Source: Escherichia phage BP32
DNA: 64,000 nt
Direction: 5' to 3' (one strand)
Sequence record: OR906198.1
Position 1 is the stretch's first letter; the number at the start of each line of letters is the position of its first letter. The notes under the pieces were generated by a model, which made no database searches, was not told where the DNA came from, and was given only the letters and a program-made list of their open reading frames with translations. This document shows positions 22,291 through 24,402 of this stretch, in pieces. The position numbers and the translations under genes are program-made.

Positions 22291-22318
22291 ATATGCTTTA
22301 AGAATTATTTGTTATTAT
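22291..22318 (+). promoter_or_regulatory. candidate MotA-dependent middle promoter
   Basis: MotA box ataTGCTTtA (22291-22300), TATTAT 12 nt downstream. Confidence 0.35.
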
Positions 22319-22400
22319 TAACTCATATCGCACTGATTAATACCCTCTATCATCAAGGGTTCTTGTTAGAGAGCCTTTGTTAATAATTGGGAATTATATT

Positions 22401-23009
22401 ATGGATACTAAATTAGCTGAAATTTTTGAAGGAAAACATCCAAATTTTAGTACAGGAAAGCTGAAAGACAAAATAATAAAAGAAAATATTTTTCCATATG
22501 AGTGTGCAATTTGTAAAATTTCAAAATGGCAAAATAAGCATATTGTTCTGCAATTAGACCATATTGATGGAAATAACAAAAATCATCTTAAATCAAATTT
22601 AAGATTATTATGTCCAAATTGCCATTCGCAAACTGATACTTTTGCTGGTAAAAATATTAAAAATAATAAAAAGCGTTATAATGTTAGTGATGAAGAAATT
22701 TTAAACGCACTATTAAATTCGGCTACTATATCATCTGCAATTACTTCATTAGGTTTAAGTAAAGGCGGAAACTATAAAAGATTCATTAAAATTGCTAATG
22801 ATAATAAATTATATCATTTACTGGTAAATATTAATGAAAAGATTTTAACTGATGAAATTTACGAAGAATTAGTTAAAATCGATTATTCTAAATTTGGATG
22901 GGTTAGTAAAGCTGCTAAAATAATAGGTATAAGCCCACAAAAAGCTAGAAAATGGATAGAACGAAAGTGCCCAGAATTGATAGAACAATCTTTTTCACGT
23001 AATAAATAA
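22401..23009 (+). CDS. HNH homing endonuclease-like protein
   Basis: HNH motif LDHIDGNNKNHLKSNLRLLCPNCH; ORF track starts at TTG 22377, first ATG at 22401; ends 7 nt before tRNA-Leu. Confidence 0.75.
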   Translation: MDTKLAEIFEGKHPNFSTGKLKDKIIKENIFPYECAICKISKWQNKHIVLQLDHIDGNNKNHLKSNLRLLCPNCHSQTDTFAGKNIKNNKKRYNVSDEEILNALLNSATISSAITSLGLSKGGNYKRFIKIANDNKLYHLLVNINEKILTDEIYEELVKIDYSKFGWVSKAAKIIGISPQKARKWIERKCPELIEQSFSRNK

Positions 23010-23015
23010 TATAGA

Positions 23016-23102
23016 GCGAGAATGGTCAAATTGGTAAAGGCACAGCACTTAAAATGCTGCGGAATGATTTCCTTGTGGGTTCGAGTCCCACTTCTCGCAC
23101 CA
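23016..23102 (+). tRNA. tRNA-Leu (anticodon UAA)
   Basis: 7-bp acceptor GCGAGAA/TTCTCGC, anticodon loop cuUAAaa, long variable arm, T-arm GGTTCGAGTCC, encoded CCA. Confidence 0.85.
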
Positions 23103-23107
23103 AATTT

Positions 23108-23181
23108 GCGGATATCGTATAATGGTATTACCTCAGACTTCCAATCTGATGATGTGAGTTCGATTCTCATTATCCGCTCCA
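23108..23181 (+). tRNA. tRNA-Gly (anticodon UCC)
   Basis: acceptor GCGGATA/TATCCGC, anticodon loop cuUCCaa, T-arm GAGTTCGATTCTC, encoded CCA. Confidence 0.85.
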
Positions 23182-23191
23182 ATTTAATTTA

Positions 23192-23265
23192 CTCCGTGTA
23201 GCTCAGTTTGGTAGAGCGCCTGATTTGGGATCAGGAGGTCCAAGGTTCAAATCCTTGTATGGAGA
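23192..23265 (+). tRNA. tRNA-Pro (anticodon UGG), no encoded CCA
   Basis: anticodon loop uuUGGga, T-arm AAGGTTCAAATCCTT; 3' end lacks CCA; 2-nt spacer to tRNA-Ser. Confidence 0.8.
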
Positions 23266-23267
23266 CT

Positions 23268-23354
23268 GGAGGCGTGGCAGAGTGGTTTAATGCACCGGTC
23301 TTGAAAACCGGCAGTCGCTCCGGCGACTCATAGGTTCAAATCCTATCGCCTCCG
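23268..23354 (+). tRNA. tRNA-Ser (anticodon UGA), no encoded CCA
   Basis: acceptor GGAGGCG/CGCCTCC, anticodon loop cuUGAaa, long variable arm, no CCA. Confidence 0.8.
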
Positions 23355-23361
23355 TAATTTC

Positions 23362-23437
23362 GCTGATTTAGCTCAGTAGGTAGAGCAACTCACTTGTAAT
23401 GAGAAGGTCGGCGGTTCGATTCCGTCAATCAGCACCA
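23362..23437 (+). tRNA. tRNA-Thr (anticodon UGU)
   Basis: acceptor GCTGATT/AATCAGC, anticodon loop cuUGUaa, T-arm GGTTCGATTCC, encoded CCA. Confidence 0.85.
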
Positions 23438-23438
23438 A

Positions 23439-23515
23439 GGCCCTGTAGCTCAATGGTTAGCAGCAGTCCCCTCATAAGGGAAAGGTTACCAGTTCAAATC
23501 TGGTCTGGGTCACCA
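23439..23515 (+). tRNA. tRNA-Ile (anticodon CAU; Met alternative)
   Basis: anticodon loop cuCAUaa, T-arm CAGTTCAAATCTG, encoded CCA; one U-U mismatch in acceptor stem. Confidence 0.7.
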
Positions 23516-23524
23516 AATTAATTA

Positions 23525-23611
23525 GGGGAGTTATCCCGTAGAGGTAGCGGTGTGGACTGTAAATCCATTGTCATTGCGACTCGGGTGGTTCGACTCCACC
23601 ACTCCCCACCA
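23525..23611 (+). tRNA. tRNA-Tyr (anticodon GUA)
   Basis: acceptor GGGGAGT/ACTCCCC, anticodon loop ACTGTAAAT as in bacterial tRNA-Tyr, long variable arm, encoded CCA. Confidence 0.8.
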
Positions 23612-23657
23612 ATTTATGACTCGTCGTGAGACGCTCAGTTCTTTATTAGGGACTGAT

Positions 23658-24323
23658 ATGCATTTTTATCTTTATAAAATAACAAATAAAATTAATAATA
23701 AAATTTATATTGGTGTGCATTCTACCGAAAATTTAGATGATGGATATATGGGTTCTGGTAAATTATTAAAAAGAGCCCAAGATAAGTATGGTATAGAAAA
23801 TTTTTCTAAAGAAATATTAGAGTATTTTGATGATAAAGAATCTATGCTTGAAGCCGAGAAAAATATTGTCACAGAAGAGTTTTTAAATAGACCAGATGTG
23901 TATAATTTAAAACTTGGCGGTGAAGGTGGATGGGACCATATAAATATTCCTGGGATGCTAAACCAGAAGAAAGATGCTAGCTTAAAAGGAGCTAAATCGT
24001 TTAAATCACGTTTTGAAAATGATATTTTACTTCAAGAAAAATATCGTAAAATTGGTTCAAATGTATTTAAACGTTTGTGGTCAACTCCTGAATACAAGGA
24101 AAAATTTTTAAATAATAGCAGATTTTTAAATAAGCATCATACTCCTGAAACTATTAATAAAATGAAAGAAATTCACGCTAAAAATAATCATCAGAAAGGA
24201 GAAAAGAATTCCCAATTTGGTATGATGTGGATTCATTCATTAGATGAAAAAGTTTCTAAACGTATTAAGAAAACTGACCCAATTCCAGAAGGATGGTTTA
24301 AAGGTCGAAAAATGAAATTTTAA
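23658..24323 (+). CDS. segB: GIY-YIG homing endonuclease SegB
   Basis: 221 aa from ATG 23658 (ORF track start 23550 would overlap tRNA-Tyr); GIY-YIG motif YLYKITNKINNKIYIGVHS; embedded in tRNA cluster. Confidence 0.8.
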   Translation: MHFYLYKITNKINNKIYIGVHSTENLDDGYMGSGKLLKRAQDKYGIENFSKEILEYFDDKESMLEAEKNIVTEEFLNRPDVYNLKLGGEGGWDHINIPGMLNQKKDASLKGAKSFKSRFENDILLQEKYRKIGSNVFKRLWSTPEYKEKFLNNSRFLNKHHTPETINKMKEIHAKNNHQKGEKNSQFGMMWIHSLDEKVSKRIKKTDPIPEGWFKGRKMKF

Positions 24324-24326
24324 TTA

Positions 24327-24402
24327 CGGGGCATAGCTCAGAAGGAAGAGCAAGGACCTTCTAAGTCCTAGGTCGTAGGTTCGATCCCTACTGCCTCGAC
24401 CA
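24327..24402 (+). tRNA. tRNA-Arg (anticodon UCU)
   Basis: acceptor CGGGGCA/TGCCTCG, anticodon loop cuUCUaa, T-arm GTAGGTTCGATCCCTAC, encoded CCA. Confidence 0.85.

Follow-up and report, generated by a model that had tools for sequence, protein, structure and literature searches.

A mosaic T4-like tRNA transcription unit in Escherichia phage BP32, with two endonuclease genes at tRNA gene boundaries

In phage T4, a middle promoter located just 5′ of the transfer RNA (tRNA) cluster drives a single precursor that contains all of the tRNAs, segB and the stable RNAs (PMC2330249). SegB cleaves tRNA genes at their 3′ ends, with a preference for the tRNA-Asn site of T2L (Brok-Volchanskaya et al., 2008, PMC2330249), and was inherited by 94-99.6% of the progeny of T4 x T2L crosses (PMC2330249). 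In phage T6, the Septu defence (PtuAB) cleaves the tRNA-Tyr of both host and phage, and does so within the variable arm rather than the anticodon; an extra phage tRNA-Tyr restores T6 plating under Septu, and escapers carry tandem 718-base-pair (bp) Tyr-segB units, formed between microhomologies at Tyr's 5′ edge and segB's 3′ end, in an amplification that needs active SegB (Chihara et al., 2026, PMC13096335). T4, which is without Tyr, cannot escape Septu (PMC13096335). A third relevant system is F-TflIV, which passages in PMC5714182 and PMC2330249 describe as a site-specific HNH endonuclease of the T5 tRNA region (Akulenko et al., 2004). Here we describe the tRNA cluster of Escherichia phage BP32, which lies within a 64,000-nucleotide (nt) stretch of its DNA (record OR906198.1; the window). 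The region is very probably a standard Tequatrovirus (T4-like) tRNA transcription unit in one of the genus's many mosaic forms, reshaped by two selfish, free-standing endonuclease genes, segB and an HNH gene standing in place of tRNA-Gln.

The cluster sits between trna.4/.3/.2 and e.8, 3′ of the internal-protein genes, and has the same neighbours in 15 related loci. Both flanks are 94-98% identical to T4 and, apart from three replaced blocks, the window is collinear with T4 at 94-99%. The 3.3 kilobases (kb) around the cluster matched 1009 phage records, nearly all of them T4-like phages of Escherichia, Shigella, Salmonella and Yersinia. Since the best genome matches over the first 24 kb of the window, to several Tequatrovirus genomes, reach only 94-96.5% identity and none is closer, the window represents a distinct Tequatrovirus strain. 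The genes and the remnant on which the comparison turns are as follows.

22388-22396, + strand: remnant of tRNA-Gln, its first 9 nt (TGGGAATTA); homology to T4 and T6 ends at Gln nt 9
22401 (ATG) to 23009 (TAA), + strand: free-standing HNH (His-Me finger) putative homing endonuclease gene, F-TflIV-like, 202 amino acids; PHROG 14736, homology
23016-23102, + strand: tRNA-Leu(UAA); ARAGORN, Rfam; identical to T4
23108-23181, + strand: tRNA-Gly(UCC); ARAGORN, Rfam; identical to T4
23192-23265 (to 23266 in ARAGORN), + strand: tRNA-Pro(UGG), CCA not encoded; ARAGORN, Rfam; identical to T4
23268-23354 (23267-23355 in ARAGORN), + strand: tRNA-Ser(UGA), CCA not encoded; ARAGORN, Rfam; identical to T4
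23362-23437, + strand: tRNA-Thr(UGU); ARAGORN, Rfam; allele 3 nt from T4, common to FJ1
23439-23515, + strand: tRNA-Ile(CAU), CCA encoded; ARAGORN (as Met/Ile(cat)), Rfam
23525-23611, + strand: tRNA-Tyr(GUA), class II with long variable arm, A73, CCA encoded, T6/T2 type; ARAGORN, Rfam
23658-24323, + strand: segB, GIY-YIG homing endonuclease gene, 221 amino acids, full length; Pfam, PHROG, homology
24327-24402, + strand: tRNA-Arg(UCU), T2-type allele, G3·U70, A73; ARAGORN, Rfam

The tRNA genes were sought with ARAGORN over the whole 64 kb and with Rfam model RF00005 (gathering threshold, 29 bits), including a permissive Rfam scan (E ≤ 1) of positions 22200-25300. ARAGORN made nine calls in the window, eight tRNAs and a "Lys(ttt)" at 24937-25030. 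RF00005 supported the eight at or above the gathering score, seven with 54-73 bits and Tyr with 30.3 bits against 29, and the permissive scan of 22200-25300 found no tRNA beyond them. A sequence-only reading made earlier had listed these same eight tRNAs, and both programs agree with its list and coordinates. It had also likened the Pro-Ser pair to that of T4; the two genes are separated by 2 nt, have no encoded CCA, as in the T4 Pro-Ser dimer, and are 100% identical to those of T4. The T4 gene set with which that reading compared the cluster is right: according to the NC_000866 annotation and ARAGORN, T4 encodes Gln, Leu, Gly, Pro, Ser, Thr, Ile, segB, Arg, rnaD and rnaC at 70.9-72.5 kb, a composition that is not the same as the window's. 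The CAU tRNA was assigned as T4's tRNA-Ile because it is identical at 74/74 positions to the T4 gene annotated as such; its CCA is encoded in the window and not in T4. In tRNA-Thr, the 27:43 pair is changed from C-G in T4 to A/A, which leaves the anticodon stem with 4 bp, and this allele was also found in FJ1 and in two IMG/VR contigs.

Homology to T4 and T6 breaks after nt 9 of tRNA-Gln and resumes at the first base of tRNA-Leu, and a 616-bp cassette (22397-23012) stands in place of Gln nt 10-73. The 9-nt remnant at 22388-22396 bears out the earlier claim that tRNA-Gln is missing where an HNH gene now sits. A tRNA-Gln that had simply been missed was considered and rejected, as only the remnant was found by ARAGORN over the whole window and by Rfam (E ≤ 1) over 22200-25300. 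The product of the HNH open reading frame (ORF) matches PHROG 14736, "HNH endonuclease", over its full length (E 5e-124) and is 35% identical to T5 hegA/F-TflIV (E 2e-22), with the DH...N...N...CPNCH motif aligned. A search of the PDB by sequence gave no significant match to this protein, and NCBIfam gave weak, sub-threshold HNH-type matches only (IscB, ZorE). Like F-TflIV it lies beside tRNA genes, and it appears to have the same HNH core and C-terminal helix-turn-helix-like tail; the T5 enzyme belongs to another phage family and has another insertion site. In T5, hegA comes directly after tRNA genes, and tRNA genes likewise adjoin several weaker HNH relatives found in T5-like and Gordonia phages.

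The distribution of the cassette, like the genes, junctions and homologies reported here, was obtained directly. The cassette occurs in 63 phage records, in one copy each, with the same flanks and at 98.4-100% identity, and all 63 cover the query including its 21-nt left flank. A T4 probe spanning the upstream region, Gln and Leu had at least 80% coverage in 448 records, that is, an intact Gln junction; in the HNH-carrying phages listed, this probe aligned up to Gln nt 9 only, or from Leu onward only. The exact replacement of Gln by the HNH gene is therefore present in approximately one in eight relatives (63 with and 448 without it). These results suggest that an F-TflIV-like HNH gene was copied into tRNA-Gln, overwriting all but the first 9 nt. 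Because the HNH gene would have overwritten it, the loss of tRNA-Gln would be collateral damage rather than an adaptation.

The second endonuclease gene, segB, lies inside the tRNA cluster and encodes a protein with 97% amino acid identity to the SegB of T4 and T6 over all 221 residues; its GIY-YIG domain scored 26.8 bits with PF01541 (cutoff, 22.6). Sequences with at least 80% coverage of segB were found in 125 phage records. When compared to segB-less clusters, the segB cassette (23616-24320) has nucleotide-exact junctions. The left one (Tyr-CCA-ATTT, with the cassette to its right) is common to T2 and fPS-65, where tRNA-Asn comes next, and the right one (AATTA-CGGGGCA, with the cassette to its left) is common to fPS-65, where it is preceded by tRNA-His. 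In fPS-65, Asn-spacer-His lies between the two junction sequences. As both junctions match those around Asn and His, segB occupies the Asn(-His) slot of fuller clusters, a placement that, as judged from the sequence, fits the published cleavage preference of SegB. The published SegB consensus GGTTCRANTCC occurs at six sites in the window, all within the cluster, versus 0.11 expected by chance. The segB leader of T4 and JEP6 is another one, 41 nt long, which follows immediately on base 73 of the CAU tRNA, so that the CCA of this tRNA is gone; the arrangement suggests a second, Tyr-less insertion or deletion context. In phages RB18, ECML-134, AV122 and others, ~99% identity to the segB cassette is confined to its first 331 nt (23616-23946), beyond which the sequences diverge; the pattern suggests that the C-terminal DNA-binding half of these seg genes was swapped.

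A segment-by-segment comparison of the window with nine relatives showed that each segment is matched at 99-100% in some relative and that no relative matches throughout. The best matches were:

trna.3: T4, 98.8%
HNH cassette: GBLB0003, 99.5%
Pro-Ser: T4 and T2, 100%
Thr, Tyr and segB leader: FJ1, 100%
segB: SH-2 and Maryam, 99.4%
Arg: SH-2, 100%

None of 50,697 deposited records covers the whole 3.3 kb, the best reaching 93%. Phages Pu-Krd-SF1/2/5/6/7 and vB_ECOLIGBLB0003 have the same order as BP32 (HNH-Leu-Gly-Pro-Ser-Thr-Met-Tyr-segB-Arg) with both endonuclease genes, but differ in having a T4-type Arg and no ORF116 (the 351-nt ORF that follows tRNA-Arg in the window). vB_EcoM_Maryam has Gln instead of HNH and otherwise the window's arrangement as far as rnaC, including segB (99.4%), the T2-type Arg and ORF116. 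JEP6 has the HNH gene and lacks Tyr. T4 agrees with the window in position (trna.2 to e.8), promoter region, identical Leu, Gly, Pro, Ser and Ile genes, Pro-Ser dimer, segB, rnaD/rnaC and terminator, but it has Gln, no Tyr, the other, 41-nt segB leader, an unrelated Arg and no ORF between Arg and rnaD. The segB-less clusters of the T2/T2L and fPS-65 type share with the window Tyr, the T2-type Arg and the 351-nt ORF after Arg, but carry Asn (plus His in fPS-65) where the window has segB, and keep Gln; the CAU tRNA of T2 is different. The fullest set, Gln-Leu-Gly-Pro-Ser-Thr-Met-Tyr-Asn-His-Arg, was found in fPS-65, in Shigella phage A2 and in an IMG/VR contig. In SH-2 and OES_C-2, only Leu (together with Gln in OES_C-2) and Arg surround segB, which directly follows Leu; this reduction corresponds to large deletions of six tRNA genes beside the endonuclease gene.

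Module boundaries in these clusters coincide with both endonuclease genes and with tRNA 3′ ends. Because the cassettes end at tRNA boundaries and are polymorphic for presence and absence, the cause with the best support for the differences from T4 is repair of double-strand breaks made by the endonucleases. The homing mechanism is established for SegB, and for the HNH gene we infer it. The turnover of the tRNA repertoire in association with endonucleases, which the sequence-only reading had proposed, is backed by the exact junctions and by published SegB homing (PMC2330249). This is a known kind of locus whose tRNA order has already been deposited, and only the combination of known modules is new. 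As the variable tRNA complement of T-even phages, SegB homing within the cluster (2008) and the action of Tyr-segB against Septu (2026) have been published, the kind of locus and its gene order offer little discovery value. The region is nevertheless a clean natural illustration, with both cassettes joined at tRNA ends by nucleotide-exact junctions and modules reshuffled among relatives. The only leads that appear worth an experiment are the HNH endonuclease that replaces Gln, and that as an enzyme erasing tRNA-Gln has no described target, and the G3·U70 tRNA-Arg considered below.

Several observations weigh against this reconstruction. That Gln was lost, that Tyr is ancestral and that segB took the place of Asn-His was deduced from remnants and frequencies rather than from a phylogeny. 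The HNH protein scored 17.3 bits with the Pfam HNH model, below the cutoff of 21.4, and a literature search yielded no paper describing this HNH gene or its replacement of tRNA-Gln. The failure to find tRNA-Gln applies to 64 kb only (ARAGORN over the window; Rfam at E ≤ 1 over 22200-25300). Finally, a single copy of tRNA-Tyr may protect little, since the T6 tRNA-Tyr is cleaved and its effect depends on dosage.

The tRNA-Tyr gene bears on an alternative in which the cluster is an anti-defence kit: Tyr and an alternative Arg would be kept, and Gln removed, in response to immunity that cleaves or senses tRNAs, with the endonucleases acting mainly as tools of amplification and exchange rather than as parasites. 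ARAGORN boundaries for this gene give a clean 7-bp acceptor stem, A73 and an encoded CCA, and the low Rfam score (30.3 against 29) comes from the long variable arm, around which the model puts the acceptor stem out of register. The gene is identical to that of FJ1 and 86/87 identical to that of T6, from which it differs by one base in the anticodon stem, the variable arm being the same. T6 tRNA-Tyr is expressed, as seen by northern blot (PMC13096335). A false Tyr call based on the marginal Rfam score was thus rejected on the strength of ARAGORN, the 7-bp stem with A73-CCA and the 86/87 match to an expressed T6 gene. As the earlier reading held, a tRNA-Tyr with a long variable arm is present before segB; its view that the gene was added to the cluster does not hold, because Tyr-like sequence is found in 613 phage records, including T2, T6, RB7 and wV7, making Tyr the common state of the genus and T4 the exception. 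The T2L tRNA-Tyr had in fact been reported in 2008 (PMC2330249). T4 would accordingly have lost tRNA-Tyr, a direction read from these frequencies. Vequintavirus-like phages, among them FV3, FFH2, Gotham and some records under the label Campylobacter phage, carry sequences 96% identical to this tRNA-Tyr, and T5-like phages carry ~83% identical ones, which suggests that the gene has been exchanged between unrelated phage families.

Resemblance to T6 extends well beyond the tRNA. The two phages share the order Met/Ile(CAU)-Tyr-segB, the segB leader and 97% identity in SegB, and over the 148 nt that begin at the end of Ile, include Tyr and reach the segB start, identity is 98.6% to T6 and 100% to FJ1. 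Catalytic-domain residues Y17 and G19, which were those mutated in the T6 SegB work (PMC13096335), are kept in the BP32 protein. A pair of short repeats has the same spacing as in T6, exactly 718 bp:

23521-23525, + strand: ATTAG microhomology, left copy, at the 5′ edge of Tyr; flanks identical to T6
24239-24243, + strand: ATTAG microhomology, right copy, within the 3′ end of segB; flanks identical to T6

On sequence grounds, then, all of the requirements of the T6 mechanism (full-length Tyr, SegB and the 718-bp microhomology) are present in the window. By analogy with T6, the phage tRNA-Tyr would supplement the host tRNA-Tyr, or serve as a decoy for it, when Septu or the PtuAB of retron-Eco7 cut it, and the adjacent SegB could amplify the 718-bp Tyr-segB unit. 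T6 differs from BP32 in keeping tRNA-Gln, in being without Pro-Ser, and in having a T4-type tRNA-Arg and no ORF116, whereas the window has HNH for Gln, the T2-type Arg and ORF116. The T6 gene annotated as tRNA-Thr (positions 2851-2925 of the T6 locus) gave no ARAGORN call; its alignment to the window suggests a Pro/Thr recombinant, with Pro-Ser deleted by recombination between conserved tRNA segments.

[quoted passage not shown] Furthermore, alleles of the Arg and CAU tRNAs share acceptor stems and differ in their bodies, as expected under diversifying pressure. However, the T6 tRNA-Tyr is not Septu-resistant but is itself cleaved, and acts by dosage (PMC13096335), a literature search gave no known defence linked to tRNA-Gln or to tRNA-Arg(UCU) alleles, and the insertion fully explains the loss of Gln. 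We therefore regard the kit as a whole as a tentative and rather doubtful explanation, although an anti-Septu contribution of Tyr in BP32 would be in keeping with the T6 work. The sequence-only reading had raised host anticodon nucleases as a possible selective agent; for Tyr this comes close, as a link to a tRNA-cleaving defence has been shown experimentally for T6 Tyr, but Septu is not an anticodon nuclease and cuts the variable arm (PMC13096335).

Returning to insertion by homing as the preferred account of the Gln site, it has to be asked whether the HNH gene is mobile at all. It could be a domesticated or dead gene whose fixed position reflects the vertical descent of one lineage, and the single insertion junction in all 63 records is what such descent would give. 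Against this, the ORF is full length and its catalytic and zinc-binding motif appears intact, and the cassette keeps 98.4-100% identity among phages that differ by up to 7% in the adjacent DNA. Within the same phages the cassette is more conserved (98.4-100%) than the surrounding 3.3 kb (about 93-98%); in Salmonella phage Lv5cm it is 100% identical as compared to 92.9% over the 3.3 kb. The contrast reads as the signature of a recently spreading element, and a mobile homing endonuclease gene would be expected to show it. In addition, the cassette is found with varied downstream regions, with or without Tyr, with or without ORF116, with large deletions (SH-2), and with a downstream Arg of the T4 type, the T2 type (B) or the JEP6/FJ1 type (C). 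An immobile HNH gene is consequently unlikely.

The tRNA-Arg gene is part of another exchanged module. It does not align with the T4 Arg gene at all, whereas positions 24322-25576 are 94% identical to T2, and SH-2 has an Arg gene with 100% identity to the window's. A third allele, in FJ1, JEP6, G8 and F1, shares the acceptor stem and has a different body. According to the Rfam alignment, the acceptor stem in the window consists of C1-G72, G2-C71, G3·U70, G4-C69, G5-C68, C6-G67 and A7-U66, followed by A73, whereas T2 tRNA-Arg has A3-U70. Of 18 Arg genes of the T2 or FJ1 type that were inspected, 11 have G3·U70, some of them located after segB and others after tRNA-His; allele frequencies rest on these 18 sequences, and a pattern scan of IMG/VR for the allele gave only 6 loci. 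Except for the 1:72 pair, the acceptor end matches the alanine identity set of E. coli tRNA-Ala. Transplanting G3:U70 into other E. coli tRNAs reportedly confers alanine acceptance (Hou and Schimmel, 1988; McClain and Foss, 1988). PMC8583063 gives G3:U70 as the identity element of alanyl-tRNA synthetase, and a literature search for G3:U70 in phage tRNAs returned nothing specific. From the sequence one could propose that tRNA-Arg is partly charged with alanine by the host alanyl-tRNA synthetase, making AGA ambiguous, or acts as a decoy for that enzyme, and that, separately, the HNH gene encodes an endonuclease, not described before, that homes specifically into tRNA-Gln. If this were true, AGA, which makes up 27% of the Arg codons of BP32, would be read ambiguously during infection. 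We consider the proposal quite improbable; the occurrence of the alanine determinant G3·U70 in many T-even tRNA-Arg genes is all the same a lead worth an experiment.

Codon usage was counted over 49.8 kb of the window, in 63 long ORFs. CAA accounts for 71% of Gln codons, and Tyr codons occur at 45 per 1000, with UAU making up 78% of them. The earlier suggestion that the tRNA changes tune the phage to codon usage, with Gln dropped and Tyr gained because codon usage or the host tRNA pool differs from that of T4, can draw on these frequent Tyr codons and on the general view that phage tRNAs offset codon-usage mismatch (PMC13096335), but is very improbable, given that CAA, which the lost tRNA-Gln(UUG) reads, still predominates among Gln codons, that usage cannot have shifted because the coding DNA of the region is 93-99% identical to T4, that Gln-plus and HNH-plus phages are otherwise near-identical and have the same listed hosts, and that the loss of Gln is the exact footprint of a mobile-gene insertion. 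As demand for a CAA-reading tRNA has not fallen, the loss of Gln is better explained as collateral damage than as tuning.

The remaining features complete the transcription unit:

22291-22318, + strand: predicted MotA-box middle promoter, ATATGCTTTA at 22291-22300, 12 nt, TATTAT at 22313-22318; pattern match
23635-23656, + strand: hairpin over the segB Shine-Dalgarno region (AGGGA), directly before the ATG; 9-bp stem
24419-24769, + strand: ORF116, 351 nt, 116 amino acids, function not assigned; PHROG 3355
24769-24885, + strand: rnaD (species 2 stable RNA) homologue; 87% identity to T4
24892-25029, + strand: rnaC (species 1 stable RNA) homologue; 97.8% identity to T4
25080-25108 (also given as 25080-25103), + strand: predicted strong intrinsic terminator, 10-bp stem with 7 GC pairs, then a T run; closes the unit

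The sequence-only reading had gone no further than the tRNAs and endonuclease genes; what is added here is the T2-type Arg allele with the ORF at 24419-24769, the Asn-His slot of segB, and rnaD/rnaC with the terminator that closes the unit. The 100 nt 5′ of the tRNA-Gln site (the trna.2-Gln spacer) are 99% identical to T4, and we take the MotA box found there to be the middle promoter of the cluster, partly on general knowledge of T4. With the MotA-type promoter at the proximal end, and rnaD, rnaC and the terminator at the distal end, all present in the window as predicted features, a single transcript would start just after trna.2 and run through the HNH gene, seven tRNAs, segB, tRNA-Arg, the small ORF, rnaD and rnaC to the terminator near 25105, the HNH ORF being its first cistron. 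Host RNases would then excise the tRNAs. Because the HNH stop codon is 6 nt 5′ of tRNA-Leu and the segB stop codon is 3 nt 5′ of tRNA-Arg, processing of these tRNAs would sever both mRNAs at their 3′ ends, as has been proposed for T4 segB (PMC2330249). The hairpin before segB has the same position as the occluding hairpin of T4 segB (PMC2330249) but another sequence, and may act in the same way.

Neither Pfam nor NCBIfam gave a match to ORF116. T2, fPS-65, JEP6, SH-2 and Maryam have it (identity 95-97% in T2, JEP6, SH-2 and Maryam), and T4 and T6 lack it. Since it is found in clusters of the T2 and fPS-65 type and not in those of T4 and T6, ORF116 moves together with the T2-type Arg allele; PMC2330249 mentions two T2L ORFs, and this is probably one of them. 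As for the "tRNA-Lys(ttt)" called by ARAGORN (94 nt, 24937-25030), this candidate was rejected: it is the tRNA-like 3′ part of rnaC and received no Rfam call. The same 3′ part of rnaC is annotated as tRNA-Lys in some GenBank records.

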